From a bacterium BMS3Bbin13 (GTDB taxonomy: Bacteria; Pseudomonadota; Gammaproteobacteria; 21-64-14), in NCBI GenBank assembly GCA_002897735.1, contig BDTW01000034.1:37230-101229 (forward strand): a stretch of 64,000 bases of DNA. Reading direction: 5' to 3'. The position numbers and the translations under genes were made by a program. Below, one piece after another: positions 1 through 20,281 of the stretch. Under the pieces are notes generated by a model. It did not search any database. It was given only the letters and a program-made list of their open reading frames with translations, and had not been told where the DNA came from. The first letter of the stretch is position 1; every line of letters begins with the position of its first letter.

Positions 1-419
1 CGTACATCCGCCAGGACGCTTGGGCCTACGGGCAACGGCTGCGCCGCGAGCTGCCGCTGAACGAGCACGGCCTACCGCGGTTTCACCTGATCCTGCTCGG
101 AATGGGACCCGACGGGCACACCGCGTCGCTGTTTCCCGGAACCTGCATCCAGCACGAAACGTCCCTGCCGGTAGCGGCGGTGTATGTACCGCGTTTGCAT
201 ACTTGGCGCATCAGCGTCACCTACCCGCTGCTCGCGGCGGCGGACCACATCGTGCTCCTGACCGAGGGCGATGGCAAGGCTCCCATACTGGCGCGCGTGT
301 TCCGCGAACCGCCGGAGCAACCGATGCTGCCGGTCCGCCGAGTCGCCGAGTCGCACGCGACCGAGTGGTTCCTGGACGAGGCCGCCGCGGCGCAGCTACC
401 GCGGCGCGAATCGCGATGA
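1..419 (+). CDS. pgl: 6-phosphogluconolactonase, 5'-truncated at window edge
   Basis: Frame 3 translates ...LILLGMGPDGHTASLFPG..., the signature motif of 6-phosphogluconolactonase / NagB-type sugar isomerases. The stop at 417-419 overlaps the glk start as ATGA. Confidence 0.8.
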   Translation, partial: YIRQDAWAYGQRLRRELPLNEHGLPRFHLILLGMGPDGHTASLFPGTCIQHETSLPVAAVYVPRLHTWRISVTYPLLAAADHIVLLTEGDGKAPILARVFREPPEQPMLPVRRVAESHATEWFLDEAAAAQLPRRESR

Positions 420-1420
420 AGGTGCTGGCCGGCGATGTCGGTGGCACCAAGACCCTGCTGCTGGTGGCCGAGTGCAATGCCGGAGGTTGCCGGAAACTGC
501 GGCAGGAACGCTTCGAGAGCGACGCCTATGACGGGCTGTCGCCGATGGTGCAGGGGTTCCTGTCCACGGCGGGGGACGCGGCCGAGGGCCTCGATCACGC
601 CTGCTTCGGCATCGCCGGTCCGGTGGAGGGGAACGCCGGCGGACAGCGGGCACGCGTAACCAATCTGCCCTGGGAATTGGACAGCACGCAACTCGCCGCC
701 ACGTTGGGACTGGCACGGGTACGCCTGATCAACGATTTTCAGGCCGTCGGCTACGGGATCGACGCACTGCCGGCCGCCGATCTGATCCCACTCCAAGAAG
801 GACGCACGGTGCCGGGCGGCCCGCGCGTGGTGATCGGCGCCGGCACCGGCCTTGGCGAGGGACTGCTGATCTGGCAGGGCGGGCACTACGAAGTGCTGCC
901 CTCCGAGGGCGGCCACACCGACTTCGCGCCCACCGACGCGGACCAAGTGGCGGTGTTCGAGGCCTTGCGCCGGCGCTACGGCCGGGTCTCCTACGAGCGG
1001 GTCCTATCCGGTCGGGGTCTGGTCAACCTCCTCGAACACCTGCCGCGGGCGCCCGGCGAACAACCCTCGGCGGAACTGAACGAGGCAATGCACGCGGGCG
1101 ACCCCGCGGCGGCGATCAGCGAATTCGCACTGGGGGGACGTGACCGCCTCGCAGAACGCGCCCTCGAATGCTTCGTGCGCATCTACGGCGCAAAGGCCGG
1201 CAATCTGGCCCTGACCTGCCTCGCCACCGGCGGCGTATTCCTGGCCGGCGGCATCGCGCCCAAGATCCTGCCGCGGCTGCGCGAGGGCCCGTTCATGACG
1301 GCGTTTCGCGACAAGGGCCGCATGGCCGGGCTGTTGGCCACCCTTCCGGTGCGGGTGATCCGCAACCCGCAGGTCGGGCTCCTGGGAGCGGCGCTGGCGG
1401 CCATGAAGTCGGCAGGTTGA
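416..1420 (+). CDS. glk: glucokinase
   Basis: MKVLAGDVGGTKT... is the ROK/glucokinase N-terminal ATP-binding motif. Length about 334 aa. ATGA start/stop overlap with pgl (the pgl-glk arrangement of the Entner-Doudoroff/zwf cluster). Confidence 0.85.
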   Translation: MKVLAGDVGGTKTLLLVAECNAGGCRKLRQERFESDAYDGLSPMVQGFLSTAGDAAEGLDHACFGIAGPVEGNAGGQRARVTNLPWELDSTQLAATLGLARVRLINDFQAVGYGIDALPAADLIPLQEGRTVPGGPRVVIGAGTGLGEGLLIWQGGHYEVLPSEGGHTDFAPTDADQVAVFEALRRRYGRVSYERVLSGRGLVNLLEHLPRAPGEQPSAELNEAMHAGDPAAAISEFALGGRDRLAERALECFVRIYGAKAGNLALTCLATGGVFLAGGIAPKILPRLREGPFMTAFRDKGRMAGLLATLPVRVIRNPQVGLLGAALAAMKSAG

Positions 1421-1475
1421 CTCGAAAATCGTTTCGCGCCGATCACCTCGTGAGGCCATCATGGTAAAGGATGCC

Positions 1476-1557
1476 GGAAAATTCAATGCGAAGGGGCCTT
1501 GCCATGGGCTTTGGTCTGCGCCGGTTGCAGGGATGTTACAATGCGAGAACTGACCCC
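1476..1557. repeat. 82-bp conserved intergenic element, copy A (76/82 identical to copy B at 5918-5999)
   Basis: Direct comparison of the two copies shows a 33-nt identical block, a 13-nt variable block, then 36 nt with one mismatch. It contains a direct repeat of CAATGCGA spaced 43 nt apart. It lies 45 nt after the glk stop and about 50 nt after the stop of the minus-strand gene ending at 1606. Confidence 0.8.
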
Positions 1558-1605
1558 GCTCTTCTTTGGCGGGGCGACACAGGCAACGCCCGCCCAAACC
1601 GCCTT

Positions 1606-2790
1606 CTACTCGGCGGCCGCTCTTCCGATGCCGTATTTCACCGCGCGGGCGGGCAGGTACCAGAGGGCGCCATCCAGCGTCATCAGGAAGCCCGCACCCA
1701 CGAGGACGAAATCGAGGTAGCTGTACGGCCCCGAGCCCAGCACCTTGTTCATGGCGAAACCGAGGCCCATGAAGGAGATGCCCGTGCGCAGGAAGGAAAG
1801 GCCGGTCCTCGCCCGCGCGTAGAGCGTCCGGTGGCCGGCGGCGATCGTCCTCTGCGCGGCGAGCATGTTGCGTTCCCGCGCGAGATAGGTGCGCTCCTTG
1901 CTGGCCGGCACCGGTCGGATGAGGGAGCAGTAATTGGTGATCGACGCCGCCATGCGGGCAAGCAAGGTCTTGTTACGTGGCTTGGCGGGGGCCTCTTCGA
2001 GGTGGTAGCGGTCGGTGAAGCGGATGGTCTCGTCGGTGACCTCCACCATGGCATGGCGCCAGGGCGCACTCATCTGCCGGCGGCGTATCTTCAGGTAATC
2101 GTAGAGCCCGGCGGCGGCCAGGCCGATCCCCGCGGCCAGGATGGCGGCGTGATACGGCTTGAGACCGTGTGCCTGGATGCGCGTCAGGGCGTTCGACAGG
2201 GCCACCATGGCCAAGCCCCAGCGCAGCAGCTTCATGGCCGTCCGCGCCCGGGCGTGCTCGGTGCGGTGGCAGGCGAGCCGGGTGCGCCACAGGGCCATGT
2301 TGTTGCGCCAATGGGCGAGCCCGGTGCGTTCGATGCCGATCAGGAGTTTCGCCTCGGCGTGCAGATAGTCCTGGATGTACCGGCGCACGTCCTCGGCGAG
2401 GGCGACGCGGAATTCGTATTGGGCCGCCGGGACGCGCCGCATCACGTCCGCCTTCATCGTCTCGCTGTGCGGATCGGCGGCCGCGATGACCGCGGTCTCG
2501 CCGAGCATCATGACCGGGAACCACTTTCCGGCCTGGAGCACGTCGCCGTCCAGGCCGGCGAACAGGCGTGACGGCACCGGCACCCGCTCGTCATACTGGA
2601 TGAAGCGGCAGCCGAAATGTCTGGAGAGCGCGGTCAGCAGTGCGCAGCGCGAGACGCCGACGTCCTTCAGCAGCACCCTTTCCAACTCGACGCCGCGGGC
2701 GGCGGCGCTTTCCTGGGCGGCGGCAAGCTGCTCCATCGTAAGGACACCGTCCTCCACCAGGGAAACGTAGGGGGTCGATTCAGTTGTCAT
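1606..2790 (-). CDS. membrane protein with N-terminal MshEN/T2SS-E N-terminal-like domain and two DUF202 (YidH-like) two-helix units
   Basis: The N-terminus LVEDGVLTMEQLAAAQE...G.ELERVLL..G.VS...LL.ALS..FG matches the MshEN/GspE_N motif. It is followed by repeated (E/A)RT.LA..RT..A..RTG...RTG + hydrophobic hairpin + FWYLPA units. It overlaps the upstream paralog by 11 bp (co-operonic). Confidence 0.6.
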   Translation of the reverse strand: MTTESTPYVSLVEDGVLTMEQLAAAQESAAARGVELERVLLKDVGVSRCALLTALSRHFGCRFIQYDERVPVPSRLFAGLDGDVLQAGKWFPVMMLGETAVIAAADPHSETMKADVMRRVPAAQYEFRVALAEDVRRYIQDYLHAEAKLLIGIERTGLAHWRNNMALWRTRLACHRTEHARARTAMKLLRWGLAMVALSNALTRIQAHGLKPYHAAILAAGIGLAAAGLYDYLKIRRRQMSAPWRHAMVEVTDETIRFTDRYHLEEAPAKPRNKTLLARMAASITNYCSLIRPVPASKERTYLARERNMLAAQRTIAAGHRTLYARARTGLSFLRTGISFMGLGFAMNKVLGSGPYSYLDFVLVGAGFLMTLDGALWYLPARAVKYGIGRAAAE

Positions 2791-4378
2791 GGCTGAAAGA
2801 GATCCGCTCCCAGGACACGGCCGGCTCGCTGTAGTCGGGGTGGACGATTTCGAAGTCGCCGACGCAGAACGGCGAACGTCGCTTGATCCGTTCCGCCGGC
2901 AGGAACCAGTAGAGGCCGTCGCCGATCAGGTACAGGCCGACGACCACGAGCAGGATGTCGAACGCCGCCCAGAATGCGTTTTCGCCGCCGAAATAGACGA
3001 ACAGGCCGGCGCCCACCGCCATGATGCTGAAGCCGGTCCGGATGAAGGCCGCTCCAGTGCGCGAGCGCGCCATCATGGTTCGCAACAGCGACATCGCGTT
3101 GCGTCTGTCGGCGAGCACGGTGCGCACCAGCGCAAGGCCCGTGGTGGCCCACACTCCGGGTTGAGCCTGAGGGGATAACGCCTCGGCCGACTGATCCTGG
3201 TTTAGTGTCGTGTAGAGGCACAACGAAGGGAATATGAGGTCCCAGAGGCCTTTCTTCCCGCCCGCCTTGTCGATGGTTTCGCGGCCGATATTGGCCGCCT
3301 TCCTGCCCGGCAAGTACCAATAGAATCCTTCCGCCAGCATGATCGTGCCCGCGGCGATCAGCGTCCAGTCGAACACCGACCACGGACCTGGATGGAACTG
3401 GCGAAAGAAGCCAATACCGATGCCGACGAAGGCGACGCCGGTACGGCCGAAGGCGAGGCCGGTCCGGGCCTTGGCCATCATGGTCCGCAGGTAGGCCTGG
3501 ACCGTTCTCTCTTCAGCGAGATTGAGGCGGTCGTTGGCCAGAAAACGCCGTCTTTCGACCGGAGAGAGCGAGTCCCAGTCCTGCCTCAATGCCGCGGCGC
3601 TCTCCACCACGGCGCTGCGGCCGAAGTTCATGTCTCCGCCGGGATCGGAGACCTCCAGTACGGAAAATCCCTCCGGCACGTCGTAAAGCGGGTAGCGCTT
3701 GATTTCCCTTGTTTCCCGCCGCGCCGGCAGGTACCAGAACAGGCCGTCGGCGATGGCGGCAACACCCAAAACCAGCAGCGGGATCTCCACCGACAGCAAA
3801 TCCCCCGCACCGAAAAGCCGCAAGAACACCACGGCGATGCTCACGCAGGCGAGCCCAGTACGGGTGAGCGCGAGTCCGGTCCGGCTCCTCGCAAACTGGG
3901 TCCTCTGGGCGGCATAGCGGGTGCGAACGATGGCGAGATAGGTCCTCGCCTTGGCCAGCGGCGTCCTTCCGGCCGAGGCGGGAAAATCCGCATTCAAGTC
4001 CCAGCTGTTTTCGATGAGCCGGATGAGATCGGGGCGCGTGGCGACCCGGAAAACGATCTTGTCGACGCCAAGGGCCTCCCGGATGCTCCGGTTCAGATCG
4101 GGGTCGTCAGGATTGCAGGCGATGACCTCTGCACTGTCTCCGCTGACCGACAGTGGCATCCACAGTTCGGACCTTAGCGTGTCCAGGTCCAGGCGCTGCA
4201 GGATGGTCTGCGGTACCGTCAGATCCTCGTCGTATTCGACGGTCGGACAGGCGTAACGCCTCGAGAGGCAGGCTAGGATTTCATGTTTTGGAGAGCCCGG
4301 ATGGCAGGTCGCCTCTTCCGGGCAAGGGCCCCTACAGGGAGCGGCTTGCTGAATGTGTTGTTCGTTCTCGCGGGTCAT
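2780..4378 (-). CDS. paralogous membrane protein: MshEN/T2SE_N-like N-terminal domain plus three DUF202-like two-helix units
   Basis: 532 aa. N-terminal region resembles GspE_N. Three repeats of ...RT.LA..RT..A..RTGLA..RTG... followed by two TM helices and a (F/L)(Y/F)W(Y/F)LPA motif. The last 11 bp overlap the downstream paralog. Confidence 0.6.
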   Translation of the reverse strand: MTRENEQHIQQAAPCRGPCPEEATCHPGSPKHEILACLSRRYACPTVEYDEDLTVPQTILQRLDLDTLRSELWMPLSVSGDSAEVIACNPDDPDLNRSIREALGVDKIVFRVATRPDLIRLIENSWDLNADFPASAGRTPLAKARTYLAIVRTRYAAQRTQFARSRTGLALTRTGLACVSIAVVFLRLFGAGDLLSVEIPLLVLGVAAIADGLFWYLPARRETREIKRYPLYDVPEGFSVLEVSDPGGDMNFGRSAVVESAAALRQDWDSLSPVERRRFLANDRLNLAEERTVQAYLRTMMAKARTGLAFGRTGVAFVGIGIGFFRQFHPGPWSVFDWTLIAAGTIMLAEGFYWYLPGRKAANIGRETIDKAGGKKGLWDLIFPSLCLYTTLNQDQSAEALSPQAQPGVWATTGLALVRTVLADRRNAMSLLRTMMARSRTGAAFIRTGFSIMAVGAGLFVYFGGENAFWAAFDILLVVVGLYLIGDGLYWFLPAERIKRRSPFCVGDFEIVHPDYSEPAVSWERISFSHDN

Positions 4379-4687
4379 GAGCCCATTCTCTTCGGCTGAT
4401 TCAAATCGCTGGGTGTTTCACCGGCCCCTCACACCGGGGCGGCTCAGGCGTGGAGTCGCCCGTTCACCCGGCGCACTGTCCGACACGATCCCCCGGCACT
4501 TCCCTCGGAGTGGTTGCCTTGCGCCTGAGCGCGTCGTAAGCAGCCCGGTTCACTATGCCACTATGCTTCATAGCCGTCGAATTGTATCAAAATGGCTCTG
4601 TTGGATTTCGAGTGGGTTGGCCTGCCTATTCCACACATCTTTTGAGGCCAAGGGTGCGGGAAGTCGATGAGTGACGGTATTGCGAGG

Positions 4688-4989
4688 TTATCCGTTGCAG
4701 AGCTGTCGGCGGAAGGCGCCGACGAGCGGGTAGACCCAGACGCTTTTGACCGGCTCGGCGTGACGATGCAGCCGATCGAGCTTGCCACGTCCCTTGGTGT
4801 CGCCCAGGTATTGCCGGTTGGCGGCCTTGTAGCAGGTGCCCGCGAAGCGGGGCTTTTCGACGAAGGTTTCCAGCAGGACCGGCCGGTACGCATAACGGGC
4901 ATGCCAGTCGTCCGCGAGGCGTCGGGCGACCAGGGCGAGGACGCGCGAGGCGAGGTTACGGCACCGGATCCACGCCAGGATGAGGAAGC
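4688..4989 (-). pseudogene. C-terminal fragment of a DUF4338-like protein (family recalled from Druantia DruA-type proteins)
   Basis: Minus-strand translation ...RPVLLETFVEKPRFAGTCYKAANRQYLGDTKGRGKLDR...FRRQLCNG* has no start codon. An in-frame stop lies immediately upstream at 4990-4992, followed by GGAATTCGGGGA direct repeats. The family assignment is from memory of the motif. Confidence 0.4.
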
Positions 4990-5208
4990 ATCAAATGGCT
5001 CCGGAATTCGGAATTCGGGGACAGCGGAATTCGGGGATAGTGTACCTAATTCGTGCCTGTCTGTTATGCGATTACGGTGATCCGCGAATCGGCCTCTCCT
5101 TGAACGACTGCCAACGCCGGCGCGATCCTGCGAGCGAGTGACGATCGCAAATGGGTATACTGTCACTGGAATACGGTGATTTGCAACGTTATGCTGCCAC
5201 CAAACATT

Positions 5209-5237
5209 TTGTAACCTGATACGTAATAGGTTACACT
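5209..5237 (+). promoter_or_regulatory. sigma70-like promoter (TTGTAA-17-TACACT) overlapping a GTAACCT...AGGTTAC operator palindrome upstream of higB
   Basis: Hexamers with a 17-bp spacer. The 7-bp inverted repeat between them is typical of antitoxin-autoregulated TA promoters. The ATG is only about 7 nt after the -10, so the mRNA may be leaderless. Confidence 0.5.
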
Positions 5238-5243
5238 CCAGAT

Positions 5244-5522
5244 ATGATGCGAAACTTCAAGCATAAGGGGCTTGAAAAATATTTCCTGAAGGGAATCAAA
5301 TCAGGGATTCAGGCCAAACATGCTGCCCGGCTGAGAATAATTCTCGGCCGGTTAAACGCTGCGACAAACCCAAAGGACATGAATCTTCCGGGCCTGAAGT
5401 TACATCAACTTAGCGGGCGTAGGAACGGCGTCTGGTCGGTTTGGGTTAGTGGCAACTGGCGTGTCACATTTCGTTTCGACGGGAAGGATGCCGAAGCTGT
5501 TGATTATGAAGATTATCATTGA
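5244..5522 (+). CDS. higB: type II toxin HigB (RelE/ParE superfamily, plasmid maintenance system killer)
   Basis: 92 aa, ...HKGLEKYF...LPGLKLHQLSG...WSVWVSGNWRVTFRF... matches the HigB family. Followed 6 nt later by the HigA-type antitoxin. Confidence 0.85.
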   Translation: MMRNFKHKGLEKYFLKGIKSGIQAKHAARLRIILGRLNAATNPKDMNLPGLKLHQLSGRRNGVWSVWVSGNWRVTFRFDGKDAEAVDYEDYH

Positions 5523-5528
5523 GGTGTA

Positions 5529-5819
5529 ATGATGAAGATGCATAACCCGCCCCATCCCGGTGAAGTGCTTCGCGAGCTGTGTATAGAACCAATGGGGCTG
5601 AGTATCACCGAAGCTGCTGAGGCTCTTGGTGTTAGCCGGAAAACCCTTTCTGCCATATTGAATGGTCGGGCCGGCATTAGCCCTGAAATGGCGGTTCGTC
5701 TTTCTTTGGCATTCGGAACCTCCGCTGAGAGCTGGTTGAATCAGCAGGCGCAGTATGATCTATGGGAGGCAGAGAAAAAGCGCAAGACGTTGAAGGTCAG
5801 GAAGCTATCGGCAGCATAA
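5529..5819 (+). CDS. higA: antitoxin HigA (XRE-family HTH)
   Basis: 96 aa, ...GEVLRE...[42 protein letters not shown]... is the HigA HTH_3 antitoxin signature. Confidence 0.85.
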
Positions 5820-5864
5820 GGCAAGTTCGATACGGGCGCTCTTTTGGGGTCCACCTCAGAGAAA

Positions 5865-5916
5865 GGGGACGGAGGGAATATTGTTTATTCCCTCCGTCCC
5901 CTTTCTCCCCTTTCTC
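5865..5916 (+). terminator. rho-independent terminator of higBA
   Basis: Perfect 16-bp stem GGGGACGGAGGGAATA / TATTCCCTCCGTCCCC with a 5-nt loop, followed by TTTCTCCCCTTTCTC. Confidence 0.7.
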
Positions 5917-5917
5917 A

Positions 5918-5999
5918 GGAAAATTCAATGCGAAGGGGCCTTGCCATGGGTTTTCGTCTACATCGGTTGCAGGGATGTTACAACGCGAGAACTGACCCC
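5918..5999. repeat. 82-bp conserved intergenic element, copy B
   Basis: See copy A. It lies 31 nt downstream of the stop (6031) of the minus-strand HTH antitoxin gene and directly after the higBA terminator. It is followed by T-runs (ATTTTTTCGACCCCCGTTTTTTCCGTTTTTT). Confidence 0.8.
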
Positions 6000-6030
6000 A
6001 TTTTTTCGACCCCCGTTTTTTCCGTTTTTT

Positions 6031-6330
6031 CTACTCGTGCGCTGCTTCGGCATGTAGTTTCAAACCTAAAGCTGCCACCACTCTGAGAATTGTGTCGAAG
6101 CCTGGGGTTCGTTCCCCTGAAAGTGCTTTATAGAGACTTTCTCGCGACAAGCCGGCATCGCGCGCCACTTGAGACATACCCTTGGCGCGGGCGATGTCAC
6201 CAAGTGCCTTTGCAATCAAAGCCGCATCGCCGTCTGCCTCATCAAGGCACGCTTCCAAATAGGCGGCCATTTCCTCCGGGGTACGAAGATGTTCGGCGAT
6301 ATCGTAGCGAGTAGTAATAGTCTTGCGCAT
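6031..6330 (-). CDS. addiction-module antidote protein (HigA-2-like XRE HTH antitoxin)
   Basis: 99 aa, ...DIAEHLRTPEEMAAYLEACLDE...ALGDIARAKGMSQVARDAGLSRESLYKALSGERTPGFDTILRV.ALGL.L is the classic 'probable addiction module antidote protein' HTH. Downstream of and co-oriented with the toxin. Confidence 0.85.
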   Translation of the reverse strand: MRKTITTRYDIAEHLRTPEEMAAYLEACLDEADGDAALIAKALGDIARAKGMSQVARDAGLSRESLYKALSGERTPGFDTILRVVAALGLKLHAEAAHE

Positions 6331-6341
6331 TAGGAGTGTTC

Positions 6342-6632
6342 CTACAGATTATGAGCAAGGCGCAATGCAGTCTTGATATCTTTGGCTTGGGTGCGCTTAT
6401 CACCGCCAGCCAACAGAATTACCAATTCACGCCCTTGCTGTTTGTAATACACCCGATAACCGGGGCCATAGCCGATCCGCAACTCAGAGACGCATTCACC
6501 CACAGGCGCGGTGTCTCCCGGATTTCCCGCTGCCAAGCGTTCAACCCTCGTGAGCACTCGAGCCCGCGCCCGGATATCGTGCAGCCCATCGAGCCACTTG
6601 GCATACACCTCCGTTTTGCGAATCTCCAGCAT
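6342..6632 (-). CDS. addiction-module killer toxin (RelE/ParE superfamily)
   Basis: 96 aa, MLEIRKTEVYAKWLDGLHD..ARARVLTRVERLAAGNPGD...VGECVSELRIGYGPGYRVYYKQQG.ELVILLAGGDKRTQAKDI is the 'putative addiction module killer protein' family. Confidence 0.85.
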   Translation of the reverse strand: MLEIRKTEVYAKWLDGLHDIRARARVLTRVERLAAGNPGDTAPVGECVSELRIGYGPGYRVYYKQQGRELVILLAGGDKRTQAKDIKTALRLAHNL

Positions 6633-6638
6633 CGCTCA

Positions 6639-6667
6639 ACTGTAGCCCGCTGGCTACACGTTGTCAA
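6639..6667 (-). promoter_or_regulatory. sigma70 promoter TTGACA-17-TACAGT with GTAGCC..GGCTAC operator palindrome for the RelE/HTH operon
   Basis: On the minus strand: TTGACAacgtgtagccagcgggcTACAGT, about 6 nt upstream of the toxin ATG. Consensus -35 and near-consensus -10. The inverted repeat sits in the spacer. Confidence 0.6.
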
Positions 6668-6682
6668 TTGTCTTTCCTGACC

Positions 6683-6823
6683 GTCGCAGTAGGAACACCG
6701 GTTACCCGGTGACCCCTGCACAGATCCCGGCGTGCGATTTGCCCACACCGGGCTCTTCAGTCATACTCACTTGCGTAGAAGTGCAGTGACTCACGCAAGC
6801 CTCCGATTCATACCGCCCTGTGG
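6683..6823. repeat. 141-bp repeat, copy 1 (about 93% identical to copy 2 at 7247-7387)
   Basis: Two copies 564 bp apart, each immediately 5' (on the minus strand) of a cassette-like gene. Each contains three local hairpins: CACCGG-TTAC-CCGGTG, CCCGGCGTGCG..CGCACCGGG and TTGCGT..ACGCAA. Confidence 0.8.
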
Positions 6824-6880
6824 CGCGTTTTTGCGTCAGCAAAATGAGTGCCGCTTTTGACTGTCCGTTGCTGCTATTTG

Positions 6881-7237
6881 TTAGCACTGGGCGGCCAGAT
6901 ACTTGTAAAGCTTACGGCAAACCGTATCAAGCTCATTTTGCCATGTCTCGTTATCATAGTGAATTAACGGACCTTCTCCAGAATCTATATAGTACGTGAG
7001 GAATCTCTGTATTGATTTATTGCCACGATGCCCGTTTCCCACTTCTTCAACAAGGTAGCCTCCTAACGCATGTAGTGCTACGGAGTAACGTTGCTTAGTA
7101 CTTTTGCTTTTCTTATCAAGACCTGCCCAGTTCCAGAATTCTTGAAAGATCAACAGTAACTCTTCAGATGTTTTCCTTTCCTGAGCTGGCTTTACGCCGT
7201 TGCGCCAGTCTGCGATCCATTCTGTTGCTGGTTTCAT
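6881..7237 (-). CDS. hypothetical protein (cassette-like ORF, no recognised family)
   Basis: 118 aa from ATG at 7237 (MKPATEWIADWRNG...). The longer ORF in the track starts inside the 141-bp repeat. The TAA stop is embedded in TGCTAAC. Lower GC than the surroundings. Confidence 0.45.
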   Translation of the reverse strand: MKPATEWIADWRNGVKPAQERKTSEELLLIFQEFWNWAGLDKKSKSTKQRYSVALHALGGYLVEEVGNGHRGNKSIQRFLTYYIDSGEGPLIHYDNETWQNELDTVCRKLYKYLAAQC

Positions 7238-7246
7238 ATCAAGTGC

Positions 7247-7387
7247 GTCGCAGTAGGAACACCGGTTACCCGGTGACCCCTGCACAGATCCCGGCGTGCG
7301 GTTTTCCCGCACCGGGCTCTTCAGTCCTACTCACTCGCGCAGAAATGCAGTGACTCACGCAAGCCTCCGATTCATACCGCCCTGTGG
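7247..7387. repeat. 141-bp repeat, copy 2
   Basis: See copy 1. It ends 9 nt before the ATG of the 6881-7237 gene on the minus strand. Confidence 0.8.
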
Positions 7388-7526
7388 GTCTGGTTGGGTG
7401 ATGGAAAGGCGTATGCCTTCAATACCCGCTTGATCCCCTCCCACGTCAGGCTTCGCCTTTGGCTCCGTCGATTCAACCACTTGTAGAGCAATTTGACCAC
7501 CTCCCTGTAAAATATCCACAGTAGGG

Positions 7527-7594
7527 GGAATAGGGGACAGACCACGGTTTTCCTGGAGATTTCCGCGATAAAACCGTGGTCTGTCCCCTATTCC
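7527..7594. repeat. perfect 25-bp inverted repeat (GGAATAGGGGACAGACCACGGTTTT / AAAACCGTGGTCTGTCCCCTATTCC) with an 18-nt loop
   Basis: Seen directly. It lies 3 nt from the GTTAGGC motif and 13 nt from the stop of the 7608-8027 gene. Confidence 0.85.
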
Positions 7595-7604
7595 TTGGTT
7601 AGGC
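7595..7604. other. integron core-site-like motif GTTAGGC (GCCTAAC on the gene strand, containing the region of the ORF stop); left copy of a 10-bp inverted repeat GTTAGGCATT
   Basis: GTTAGGC at 7598-7604 matches GTTRRRY. Its inverse GCCTAAC at 8051-8057 lies 23 bp upstream of the same gene's ATG. The flanks extend to 10/10 bp inverted identity (GGTTAGGCATT vs AATGCCTAACG). Confidence 0.5.
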
Positions 7605-7607
7605 ATT

Positions 7608-8027
7608 TTACTCTTCCCATACCGGATATTGCTCTGGCTTGTTGCCCGCCTCACTAACTACCCTTGGATAGCTTATGCCTTGCTTCGGTTTCTGAGGATT
7701 GTTTCTGGATTTTGTTATTTTAAACAACCAACTATCTCCATAATCGAACATATAATATAACCTTCTATCTTTTTCGAGCGGATATACGCTCTCTAAAGTC
7801 GTGCTATATATTCCTCCATCTTCATCATCAAATCGTATGCGATCACGGCTTCTTTCTGTTCTTGATATATAAAACTCATACAGATGATCATTATCAAACT
7901 CTACCGCATCCTGAATCGTAAAATGTAGGGATTCAAGAGTTGACGCGGAATCTATTTCAACTGTTGTTTGCCACTTTTCTTTCGCATAGGCGCCAAATAT
8001 TAATTCAATTTTAAAAGTCCAAATCAT
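7608..8027 (-). CDS. pRiA4b ORF-3-like family protein (hypothetical)
   Basis: 139 aa. ...YYMFDYGDSWLFKITK... matches the Y.FD(F/Y)GD.W.H.I motif of the plasmid pRiA4b ORF-3-like family. Low GC. Flanked by inverse core-like heptamers. Confidence 0.55.
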   Translation of the reverse strand: MIWTFKIELIFGAYAKEKWQTTVEIDSASTLESLHFTIQDAVEFDNDHLYEFYISRTERSRDRIRFDDEDGGIYSTTLESVYPLEKDRRLYYMFDYGDSWLFKITKSRNNPQKPKQGISYPRVVSEAGNKPEQYPVWEE

Positions 8028-8050
8028 TAAACTGGCCCTCTTTTTTCAAT

Positions 8051-8060
8051 GCCTAACGTA
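8051..8060. other. right copy of the inverted GTTAGGCATT motif (attI/attC-like core GCCTAAC on top strand)
   Basis: On the minus strand this reads GTTAGGC followed 23 nt later by the ATG of the first cassette-like ORF, i.e. the arrangement of an attI or attC R' site followed by a cassette. Confidence 0.45.
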
Positions 8061-8252
8061 TTAGCATTATATCCGACGTGCGCAGCATGGTGGATAAATG
8101 TATGTTGGGCTAAGCCGCCCATCAGGGTGGCGCTTACTTAATTTATAGGGAAATGTATTGGGTGGATCGATCGTGGCGCGATGGTGGCTGCGCGGATCTG
8201 CGCGCCGACGGCGCCTTCGGGTTCTGATTAACCATGCAGGATGCCTCTGTGA

Positions 8253-8534
8253 GGGTCGATTTTCGTCAATCTAACGCCGTTTCCATCGAAAAGCCAATCC
8301 AGGGCGTGCACACAGCGCGCTGTGCGCAACGCCGGGCGCCGGGCAGGCATCCACAAGAAGGCCTCTTGCCATACCTTCCGACACTGCTTCGCCACTCATC
8401 TTCTGGAACGGGGGCATGACATCCGCACGGTGCAGGAACTATTGGGGCACAAGGACGTAAAAACGACGATGATTTATACCCACGTGATCCAGCGCGGCGG
8501 GCACGGGGTACGGAGCCCGTTGGATGGGATGTGA
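8253..8534 (+). pseudogene. intI: integron integrase (IntI) C-terminal remnant, about 76 aa of about 320
   Basis: ...[73 protein letters not shown]. The HxxR...Y catalytic C-terminus plus the IntI-specific GVRSPLD tail; compare IntI1 ...[71 protein letters not shown]. Similarity stops at about 8305. An in-frame stop lies at 8250. Upstream is AT-rich non-coding. Confidence 0.75.
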
Positions 8535-8577
8535 GGCCGTGATGAAAGGCTGTGCATCGAGGGTACGGGGGATGTGT

Positions 8578-10020
8578 TTACCGGGCGGCCCCCGGCGCAC
8601 GCAGCAGGGTCCGGCCGTTGACTGTCAAGCGCCCCGAGTCGTAGCGCAGTACCGCTCGGCACTCGCCGCCGTCGCATTCCAGCAGGCCCCGGGCCTTCAG
8701 GGACTGCATTCGCTGTCGGCCCATCAACGTCGCCACCCGCACGATCTGTGCCGGGTCGAGTCTCTGCACGGCGCCTTTGCCGCGTGCGGCGAGCAGTTGC
8801 GAGCGCGCCCGGGTGACCAAGACCGCGCGCAGTACCGTCGTGGGGACGCGCAGTTCCGCATCGCCCACGAGCCGCTTCCACGCGTCAGGACCGGGCGTAA
8901 CGGACGCGGGGAGCTTCACGCGCCCGCGCAGCAGTACCGGGCCCGCCCCGGTACGCAGGCTCAGATCGAGGACGATCTCGGGTGAGCGGCGCAGCAGGTC
9001 GGGCAGTATCGCGAGCATCTGCCCGGCAAACCGGCGGCGGAGCGCCGCCGGGTCCGCGACCTGATCGCGCAGGCGGCGCATCGCCTTCTGCAGACGCACC
9101 ACGGCGTCCGTATCCAGACGAGCGATGCGTAATTCATAGATCAGGGGCCCGACCTCGATCGCACCGGCCCGGATCGTGCGCGCCCGCATCGCCATGCGCA
9201 CCGTCATGGCGCCGTCGTGTTCGGCGCCGGCACTGTGCAGATCCAGCCCCGTTACCGAGAGAGAGGTTCGTTTCGAGCCGGTCGCGGCGGCATCGAGGGA
9301 GGCCGCCCGCAGCGTCATCTCCCCCTGCATCAGCCCGGAGGGGGCGCGGCGGCTGTGGCCCTCCAGGCTCACGTCCCGCAGGCGCACGAAGGCGACGGGG
9401 CCGTCGATCTCCAGTCCCGGCGCCGTGAAGCGTTCGGTGACACGGCCGAAGTCGGCACTCCATCCGACCCGTCCGCGCAGGCCGCCCCACACGACCCGCT
9501 GCGCGCCATATGGGGCGGCCCGCAGTGGGCCGACACCACGGCCGGTCCCGGTCAGGCGCCAGGCCGGCATTCGCACATCGGTGTCGCTGCGCCCGGACAG
9601 GTACACCACGGTCACCGCTTCCAGGGGCTTGGCGGGGAGCCCCGAACCGGTCCCGAAACCGGACTTGGCATCGCCGATCAAAACGCTGTGGATCACCGCC
9701 AGCACCGGCGCCACGCCGTCGCGCCGGCCGGCCACCGGATACGGGCCGTGTTCGATCCGCTCATCGAGGTCGAAGCCGAACTGCGGCAGGGCCAGGGCGG
9801 GACCCGGTGGCGGGGTCAGGGTGACCCGGATCCGGGCGCGCGAGGAAAACCAGCCGCGTTCGTAGTCGACGATGCGCAGGCGAAACGGGCCGGCCCGCCC
9901 GGCCTCGCGCACTAAGGCGCGGACCTCCCGCTCGACACGGATCCCCATCCAGTACGGCAGGGCCAGGGCGGCTATCGCTACGGCCGTAGCCGCGGCGAGG
10001 ACGAGAACTTTCCTGGGCAT
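8578..10020 (-). CDS. DUF945 (YdgA-like) family protein, N-terminal membrane anchor
   Basis: About 480 aa from MPRKVLVLAAATAVAIAALALPYW...; ...IVDYERGWFSSRARIRVTL resembles the YdgA-family N-terminal motif (Y.RG.FSS). Confidence 0.45.
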   Translation of the reverse strand: MPRKVLVLAAATAVAIAALALPYWMGIRVEREVRALVREAGRAGPFRLRIVDYERGWFSSRARIRVTLTPPPGPALALPQFGFDLDERIEHGPYPVAGRRDGVAPVLAVIHSVLIGDAKSGFGTGSGLPAKPLEAVTVVYLSGRSDTDVRMPAWRLTGTGRGVGPLRAAPYGAQRVVWGGLRGRVGWSADFGRVTERFTAPGLEIDGPVAFVRLRDVSLEGHSRRAPSGLMQGEMTLRAASLDAAATGSKRTSLSVTGLDLHSAGAEHDGAMTVRMAMRARTIRAGAIEVGPLIYELRIARLDTDAVVRLQKAMRRLRDQVADPAALRRRFAGQMLAILPDLLRRSPEIVLDLSLRTGAGPVLLRGRVKLPASVTPGPDAWKRLVGDAELRVPTTVLRAVLVTRARSQLLAARGKGAVQRLDPAQIVRVATLMGRQRMQSLKARGLLECDGGECRAVLRYDSGRLTVNGRTLLRAPGAAR

Positions 10021-10187
10021 GGCGATTCCCGGCGCGGAGTGGAGTGAGGTTCCCGCCACGATCTCCCGCCGGCCGCGAATCCGGTCTCGGGATCTTCGAA
10101 TCGGACCCGGGTATCGGCCGGGAGGCTATGCGCTTTAACGGGTTGCGGGCCCTTGCACCTGCGGCCCGCTTCGGTTGAAATACGCTT

Positions 10188-20083: not shown

Positions 20084-20281
20084 AAGAGCATCTCCCGCCT
20101 GTGCCGTGGGGGGCCTTCGCCCTTGAACCACTTGGTTCAGGTGGGGACATCGGCCGGCGAATCAGGCTTTCCGCACAGCGGCGGACTTGCACACAACGCC
20201 GGCGACTCCGTCCCCAGGGCGCCACGATAGGGCCAAGGATCTTCCAGGCCCCCGCCTCGAACACCGCAGGAGATGCCAAAC
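20084..20281 (-). ncRNA. ssrS: 6S RNA (SsrS)
   Basis: Immediately downstream of zapA as in other gammaproteobacteria. The minus strand contains CACCUGAACCAAGUGGUUCAAGGGCGAAGG (compare E. coli 6S ACCUUGAACCAAGGGUUCAAGGG). The terminal GGCAUCUCCUGC...GCAGGCGGGAGAUGC forms a closing stem. Ends are approximate (+/-10 nt). Confidence 0.8.

Follow-up and report, generated by a model that had tools for sequence, protein, structure and literature searches.

What preserved two short intergenic repeats in a deep-sea gammaproteobacterium is the question raised by a 64,000-nt stretch of bacterium BMS3Bbin13 (contig BDTW01000034.1 of assembly GCA_002897735.1, positions 37,230 to 101,229), hereafter the window. 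The repeats bracket a 4.4-kb segment, and an earlier note, made from the letters of this DNA, had proposed for them a structured RNA, a bipartite protein-binding site or attachment-site-like borders of a mobilised module. Our answer, which we hold with high confidence, is that both repeats derive from the left (5′) end of a TIRtron, lie on the minus strand and are now inactive relics. A TIRtron is a unit of about 0.9 kb resembling an insertion sequence (IS), with a single Y1/HUH tyrosine transposase gene, encoding the TIRYT protein, between 26-nt terminal inverted repeats; TIRYT is a relative of the RAYT and IS200 transposases with a C-terminal tail resembling a helix-turn-helix (HTH). The repeats are ordinary relics of this already known class of element.

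The repeats themselves were readily delimited. A repeat search returned one two-member direct-repeat family of 82 nt, at 1476–1557 and 5918–5999, with 76/82 identical positions (93%), and alignment reproduced the layout described in the earlier note, a 33-nt and a 36-nt block on either side of a 13-nt variable block. The borders are sharp, since identity begins and ends abruptly at the 82-nt coordinates in a pairwise alignment with 100-nt flanks. When up to three mismatches were permitted, the 33-nt and 36-nt blocks each occurred twice in the window, and no match was obtained in dinucleotide-shuffled sequence. Six positions differ between the copies, five of them within 1509–1521 and one at 1542. 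Identical copies are present in same-species contigs (assembly GCA_002897795.1, bacterium BMS3Bbin12), and one Logan contig terminates exactly where the 33-nt block ends, the outcome expected if the assembly graph branches at a two-copy repeat. Searches for close copies in catalogued genomes gave little: an exact 23-mer of the element had no match in the GTDB species genomes, a search of a plasmid collection returned just one 30-nt chance match, and a scan of GTDB genomes anchored on the neighbouring glk gene found one close relative (96% identical) whose contig ends inside glk, the others being at most 57% identical and without the element.

Diverged copies were nevertheless found elsewhere, in metagenome loci and in other genomes. 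Scanning JGI metagenome contigs with a 20-nt seed gave three loci with such copies (L084, L085 and L087), which encode neither glk nor any other protein of the window and are 88–93% identical to the window fragments over 137 nt and 82 nt. Their homology to copy 1 spans window positions 1421–1557, beginning right past the glk stop codon. Compared with these family members, copy 1 reaches 55 nt beyond the 82-nt unit, to 1421, and is 137 nt long; the 82 nt are only the portion common to both window copies.

The nature of the element became apparent from an intact relative. In L084, the repeat is the front of a minus-strand open reading frame (ORF; 4044–4895) for a 283-aa protein starting MARPLRIEYSGALYHVTSRGDRREAIFEDDEDR. 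This protein matches the Pfam family Y1_Tnp (E = 1.2e-10) and the NCBIfam family NF047646, 'REP-associated tyrosine transposase' (85.8 bits; cut-off 80), and its only PDB relative is the E. coli transposase TnpAREP (4ER8), with which residues 50–147 could be aligned and against which the query bears the HYH and RYVVLNPV motifs. The L084 unit (4039–4947) is about 0.91 kb long, and its ends are inverted copies of GGGGTCAGTTCTCG[C/T]ATTGTAACATC. The left repeat begins 52 nt before the start codon in intact units; the right-hand repeat of L084, inverted with respect to the left one, spans the final codons and the stop codon of the gene (..GRMLQCEN*).

The same architecture recurs throughout the protein family. 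We found at least 8000 protein homologues at E <= 1e-20, and the best 120 of them are mostly about 283 aa long (257–291 aa) and 69–90% identical. The listed homologues are named in their source records 'transposase', 'REP element-mobilizing transposase RayT' or, wrongly, 'toxin RelE', and many of their contigs measure only about 0.9–1.1 kb, as is usual for multicopy repeats. Eighteen loci fetched for nine homologous proteins (L090–L107; 70–90% protein identity) were then compared. In every full-length gene with enough contig, GGGTCAG[T/G]TCTCG[C/T]ATTGT lay ahead of the start codon, beginning at a distance of 52 nt, or of 51 nt in ends that open with GGGTCAG, and an inverted copy of the repeat crossed the stop codon; the same arrangement was present in Sulfurifustis variabilis AP014936 at 75% protein identity. 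The proteins of L084 and L090–L107 have HYH and RYVVLNPV in alignment with TnpAREP. One contig, the 924-bp L106, consists of nothing but the unit. In addition, one identical protein (P0053) was found on at least 24 contigs, with at least six different right flanks after a shared ..CTGACCCCATGACC; the unit is multicopy elsewhere, which indirectly suggests mobility. In records of Sulfurifustis variabilis and Acidihalobacter yilgarnensis, two members of this transposase family (P0023 and P0072) bear the name 'toxin RelE' or 'addiction module toxin RelE', which looks like an annotation error spread through public databases.

With these relatives at hand, the anatomy of both window copies could be read on the minus strand, their informative strand. 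Each copy consists of a 26-nt terminal inverted repeat followed by a 26-nt leader and by the beginning of the Y1/HUH transposase gene, from its start codon through codon 10 (MARPLRIEFS). Copy 1 (1421–1557, 137 nt, minus strand) is a truncated left end that retains the repeat, the leader and codons 1–29 and is 88–89% identical to L084, L085 and L087. Its left terminal inverted repeat (1532–1557) reads GGGGTCAGTTCTCGCATTGTAACATC, a sequence shared by the two ends of all full-length units that we examined, and its leader (1506–1531), which contains the 13-nt variable block (1509–1521), varies more than any other part of an alignment made from 13 left ends (alignment A2). The remainder is a transposase pseudogene remnant (1421–1505) in which the start codon (1505–1503) and codons 1–29 are present in frameshifted form: tblastn located MARPLRIEFSGILYH at 1505–1461 and SRGDRRETIFE at 1495–1421 in a second frame, the frameshift being a 1-nt insertion near 1457–1461, where full-length relatives read MARPLRIEFSGALYHVTSRGDRREAIFED.

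Copy 2 (5918–5999, 82 nt, minus strand) is likewise a truncated left end, shortened to the repeat, the leader and codons 1–10. The left terminal inverted repeat (5974–5999) reads GGGGTCAGTTCTCGCGTTGTAACATC, the leader occupies 5948–5973 in alignment A2, and the coding start lies at 5918–5947, with the start codon at 5947–5945 and MARPLRIEFS placed at 5947–5918 by tblastn. Its homology ends 10 nt short of a perfect 22-bp hairpin (5859–5907), which adjoins the inner end of the copy and marks the homology stop but lies outside the TIRtron. Both copies open with GGGGTCAG on the minus strand, matching the published TIRtron end motif GGGGWSAS. Both have lost the right end and all that followed in the gene: tblastn detected no other part of the transposase gene in the 64-kb window, and no second inverted end was found there for either copy. 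Because the right end and the gene are missing, the copies cannot move alone and are most likely inert, serving at most as short substrates for homologous recombination.

This anatomy also accounts for the conserved–variable–conserved pattern. In alignment A2, invariant columns make up the core of the repeat (GGGTCAG.TCTCG..TTGT) and the coding part, and the 26-nt leader between these invariant parts, which holds the 13-nt variable block, varies freely. Across codons 1–29 of 11 intact genes, variable columns number 28 at third, 8 at first and 5 at second codon positions; this third-position excess indicates purifying selection on the protein, not selection on the DNA or RNA. The 33-nt block is thus coding sequence, comprising the start codon and codons 1–10 on the minus strand, the 13-nt block a loosely constrained leader and the 36-nt block a stretch that includes the transposon end. 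The suggestion of a protein-binding site holds in part: 26 nt of the 36-nt block form the terminal inverted repeat, presumably a protein recognition site. The earlier note had further pointed to a short internal direct repeat with 43-nt spacing. This sequence, CAATGCGA, starts at 1484 and 1539, so that the two occurrences are 55 nt apart from start to start with 47 nt between them, and the second occurrence reads CAACGCGA in copy 2. One occurrence lies inside the transposon end and the other spells Arg-Ile (CGC ATT); because the coding occurrence drifts at wobble positions in the family (CGT, CGA), we regard the internal repeat as coincidental.

Since codons and a transposon end explain the conservation, it is very unlikely that the repeat is a small RNA or a 3′ untranslated region element with a conserved hairpin and a variable loop, transcribed from the plus strand or forming the tail of the upstream minus-strand genes. 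A central hairpin can indeed be drawn, three of the five central changes between the window copies preserve its pairing, and the family shows a UA/CG exchange at one pair (columns 34/45); however, when the hairpin was imposed on 10 left ends (alignment A3), 79.1% of cells were paired compared with 76.5% in shuffles, two pairs showed double changes, and the outer stem did not hold in L084 and L085, the closest relatives, so that the covariation is unconvincing. The supposed variable loop corresponds to the least constrained part of the leader. Both strands of both copies folded no better than dinucleotide shuffles (z from −0.2 to +2.5), and Rfam gave no match to the element at gathering or permissive thresholds (E up to 10), its only matches in the window being hairpin noise beside copy 2, the 6S RNA and a piece of a group II intron.

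A small protein encoded by the plus strand is extremely improbable. In copy 1, an ATG at 1461, with a ribosome-binding-site-like GAGG 5 nt upstream, opens a frame for MVKDAGKFNAKGPCHGLWSAPVAGMLQCEN that stops at 1551–1553, but the start is missing in copy 2, none of the six nucleotide differences would be synonymous, and L084 has an in-frame TAG. Moreover, the tail of this ORF (..MLQCEN*) mirrors the C-terminus of the transposase, a likeness produced by the inverted repeat.

The leader may instead have served the transposase gene on the minus strand. In intact units, TTGTAA within the repeat is followed, after 17–18 nt, by TAGACT, TAGCCT, TAGGCT or TAAGCT and, 7 nt later, by the start codon. 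TTGTAA, as a −35-like hexamer, and the TAGACT-type −10-like hexamer would constitute the transposase promoter, and the mRNA would be nearly leaderless, which would explain the absence of a Shine-Dalgarno sequence. Copy 1 retains the −35-like TTGTAA (1541–1536, minus strand) within the repeat and a degenerate −10-like CAGACC (1518–1513, minus strand) in the leader. The −10-like hexamer of copy 2 is TAGACG, compared with TAGACT or TAAGCT in intact relatives, and the T at position 6 of this hexamer is missing in both window copies.

We also considered the two copies as borders of the segment between them. The genes around the copies, starting from a partial pgl upstream of glk, are glk (416–1420, plus strand), whose stop codon (1418–1420) is abutted by copy 1; two MshEN-DUF202 genes (1606–2790 and 2780–4378, minus strand); a DruA/DUF4338 (Druantia) fragment with no intact ORF left (approximately 4700–4990, minus strand; profile positions 137–226 of 297, E = 1.9e-15); higB and higA (5244–5819, plus strand); and, beyond copy 2, genes for an HI1420-type antitoxin and a Gp49-type toxin (6031–6632, minus strand). 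Each copy thus lies past the stop of a minus-strand gene, an MshEN-DUF202 gene ending at 1606 and the HI1420-type antitoxin gene ending at 6031, and the DUF4338 fragment and higBA do lie within the segment, as the earlier note had reported. Direct repeats that bracket a toxin–antitoxin pair and a defence-gene fragment would fit attL/attR-like boundaries of a 4.4-kb mobilised module comprising the MshEN-DUF202 pair, the DruA fragment and higBA, yet several results make this reading highly improbable. Both copies are left ends in the same orientation, their inner truncations differ, with true lengths of 137 nt and 82 nt, and neither the segment nor its immediate surroundings contain an integrase or recombinase gene; regarding att sites, ARAGORN detected no tRNA or tmRNA in the window. 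The mutual identity of the copies is 92.7%, and their identity to full units in other organisms is 90–91.5%; because the first value barely exceeds the second, the copies are not recent duplicates of one another.

The segment does not behave as a block of cargo either. A relative (L108; protein 84% identical) has the MshEN-DUF202 pair between xseA/M23-peptidase genes and ahpC with no adjoining repeat, and its nucleotide homology to the window (84.6% identity) covers only 1598–4380. Because L108 holds the same pair without repeats, the pair is native rather than cargo. The synteny comparison that the earlier note had called for is therefore answered in part: a relative carries the pair without the repeats, but its neighbourhood is rearranged, and the absence is shown only beside the pair. 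Base composition agrees, since GC content is 0.61–0.69, a native value, over 1600–5200, and a patch of 0.39–0.58 at 5200–8400 straddles copy 2 instead of filling 1558–5917. Together, these results retain from the original idea a repeat family that is found elsewhere and is related to mobile elements, and they leave aside att borders and a small RNA.

The truncated left ends may have arisen by a partial tandem duplication of the flank and left end or by an internal deletion. Their inner ends are the one oddity, since they recur in unrelated genomes. Copy 1 breaks off (..GATTTTCGAG|) at precisely the same nucleotide as a solo 137-nt fragment that sits 21 nt upstream of the full unit in L084, and copy 2, which ends after codon 10, breaks off within 1 nt of the point where a solo fragment ahead of the full Sulfurifustis unit (L092) does. 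The coding DNA contains a 12-bp hairpin whose loop includes the breakpoint at codon 29, and hairpins in single-stranded DNA are where the Y1 enzymes of IS200/IS605 elements and TnpAREP act. Tandem arrangements of a partial end and a full unit are common and occur in L084, L090, L092, L097, L104 and L105, each partial end having a copy of the short purine-rich flank; the duplications were mapped to 4812–5169 in L084, 2877–3000 in L090, 2836–2960 in L092 and 2391–2420 in L105. Di Nocera et al. also reported families of such repeats in some genomes (PMC3733652).

These observations would fit solo left ends that form a non-autonomous family of their own, similar to a precursor of repetitive extragenic palindromes (REPs) or to miniature inverted-repeat transposable elements, made or copied by TIRYT through cutting at fixed internal sites after codons 10 and 29. 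We consider this unlikely: a site-specific origin rests on two plus two cases, the 64-kb window has only two copies, neither with a second inverted end, and the solo fragments elsewhere lie next to a full copy, in flank-containing tandem duplications of a kind that slippage, too, could yield. With two cases for each breakpoint, the recurrence may reflect chance or slippage, or it may hint that the enzyme makes the fragments. If TIRYT does cut at these sites, this would be a route from a transposon end to a free-standing repeat family and to the birth of REP-like repeats; breakpoint recurrence, if general, would be relevant to the way in which Y1 transposases give rise to families of short repeats.

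Several points weigh against the assignment of the copies to TIRtron left ends. Neither the 64-kb window nor the same-species contigs that we reached contain an intact TIRtron, and the family assignment consequently rests on relatives in other organisms; an intact TIRYT sought in the samples of the source genome through four proteins (P0001, P0002, P0003 and P0005) led in all cases to other samples. The count of two copies and the absence of a transposase gene hold for the 64-kb window. A sigma-70 scan finds no promoter, the sites of intact relatives agreeing with 8/12 consensus positions against a threshold of 9/12. Simple random decay does not account for truncation points that are identical in unrelated genomes. 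Finally, neither the transposition of TIRYTs nor their use of the inverted repeats has been shown experimentally (PMC6006769, PMC3733652). TIRtron left-end relics nevertheless remain our strongly preferred explanation of the two repeats.

The surroundings of the repeats contain other mobile or repetitive DNA. The low-GC patch at 5200–8400 (0.39–0.58 compared with 0.62–0.74 around it) holds higBA, the second toxin–antitoxin pair, a PRiA4_ORF3-like gene (7608–8027, minus strand) and pieces of group II introns. Two direct repeats of 142 nt, 95% identical, lie at 6682–6823 and 7246–7387; a group II intron domain V/VI match (7247–7321, minus strand; 45.3 bits, gathering threshold 40) overlaps the second of them, and the two repeats are probably the 3′ ends of degraded group II introns. 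The 6S RNA gene (ssrS) was detected in full length at 20088–20275 on the minus strand (71.5 bits). Long perfect hairpins of 22 and 25 bp with GGGGAC(A/G)G-type arms lie just past genes in the window (5859–5907 and 7527–7594), in L108 (approximately 8250–8290) and in L085 (approximately 1160–1180). The arm AAAACCGTGGTCTGTCCC is common to L085 and window positions 7570–7594, and these hairpins look like a separate palindromic repeat family of this lineage.

Two further classes of short element were tried for the 82-nt repeat and rejected. An integron attC site was considered because of the neighbouring toxin–antitoxin cassettes, but the core motifs RYYYAAC/GTTRRRY are absent at the ends on both strands, and the ends are not mutually complementary. 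A REP or REPIN does not fit a 26-nt repeat without a GTAG tag or internal palindrome that has two copies in 64 kb.

On a larger scale, lptD-surA-pdxA-rsmA adjoin apaG-apaH in many Gammaproteobacteria. In this species (contig L001, 3082–21005; window positions 1–10059), about 11 kb splits rsmA from apaG and carries pgl-glk, the MshEN-DUF202 pair, toxin–antitoxin modules and a DUF945 gene. The TIRtron remnants mark the rsmA–apaG interval in this bacterium as a dumping ground for mobile DNA. The significance of the two repeats lies mainly in annotation and only slightly in wider biology: the unannotated elements can be labelled TIRtron left-end remnants on the minus strand and should not be put forward as a small RNA, a regulatory site or island borders.

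How, then, do the repeats and their intact relatives compare with known systems? Y1/HUH transposases of the IS200/IS605 and RAYT type act on single-stranded DNA. The intact units resemble IS200, of the IS200/IS605 family, in being small and having a single gene, which encodes a Y1 HUH transposase matching Pfam Y1_Tnp. The ends of IS200/IS605 elements, however, are subterminal hairpins without terminal inverted repeats, whereas the TIRtron relatives have 26-nt inverted repeats and a longer protein. They share with REPtrons (RAYT/TnpAREP genes with REP or REPIN sequences) a homologous protein, an NCBIfam REP_Tyr_transpos match above the cut-off, the match to 4ER8 and a gene flanked by inverted repeats, but they differ from REPtrons in that the flanking repeat is not a GTAG-tagged palindrome, only two copies occur in the 64-kb window and the protein is about 120 aa longer. 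The window copies themselves are like solo IS ends and other IS remnants, being truncated or frameshifted 5′ fragments of a transposase gene that keep one terminal repeat amid mobile debris, although the coincidence of their truncation points across unrelated genomes is unusual for random decay.

The closest correspondence is with the TIRtrons. Di Nocera et al. (2013; PMC3733652) gave this name to RAYT-like genes between long inverted repeats, and the name TIRYT to their proteins; these units share the end motif GGGGWSAS, which is also given in PMC6006769, their repeats can overlap the 3′ end of the gene, and their copies are single, dimeric or clustered. Quentin et al. (2018; BMC Genomics 19:475; PMC6006769) placed TIRYTs in subclass 2.1 of TnpA-Y1, with a C-terminal HTH-like domain and no nearby REP sequences. 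In our case, GGGGTCAG fits GGGGWSAS, the relatives have one RAYT-like Y1/HUH gene with a C-terminal HTH-like extension and a 3′ end overlapped by the right repeat, and the repeats occur singly, in pairs and in clusters. The window differs in having two truncated left ends only; because it contains neither a gene nor a right end, the two copies are not complete TIRtron members but remnants of this described class.

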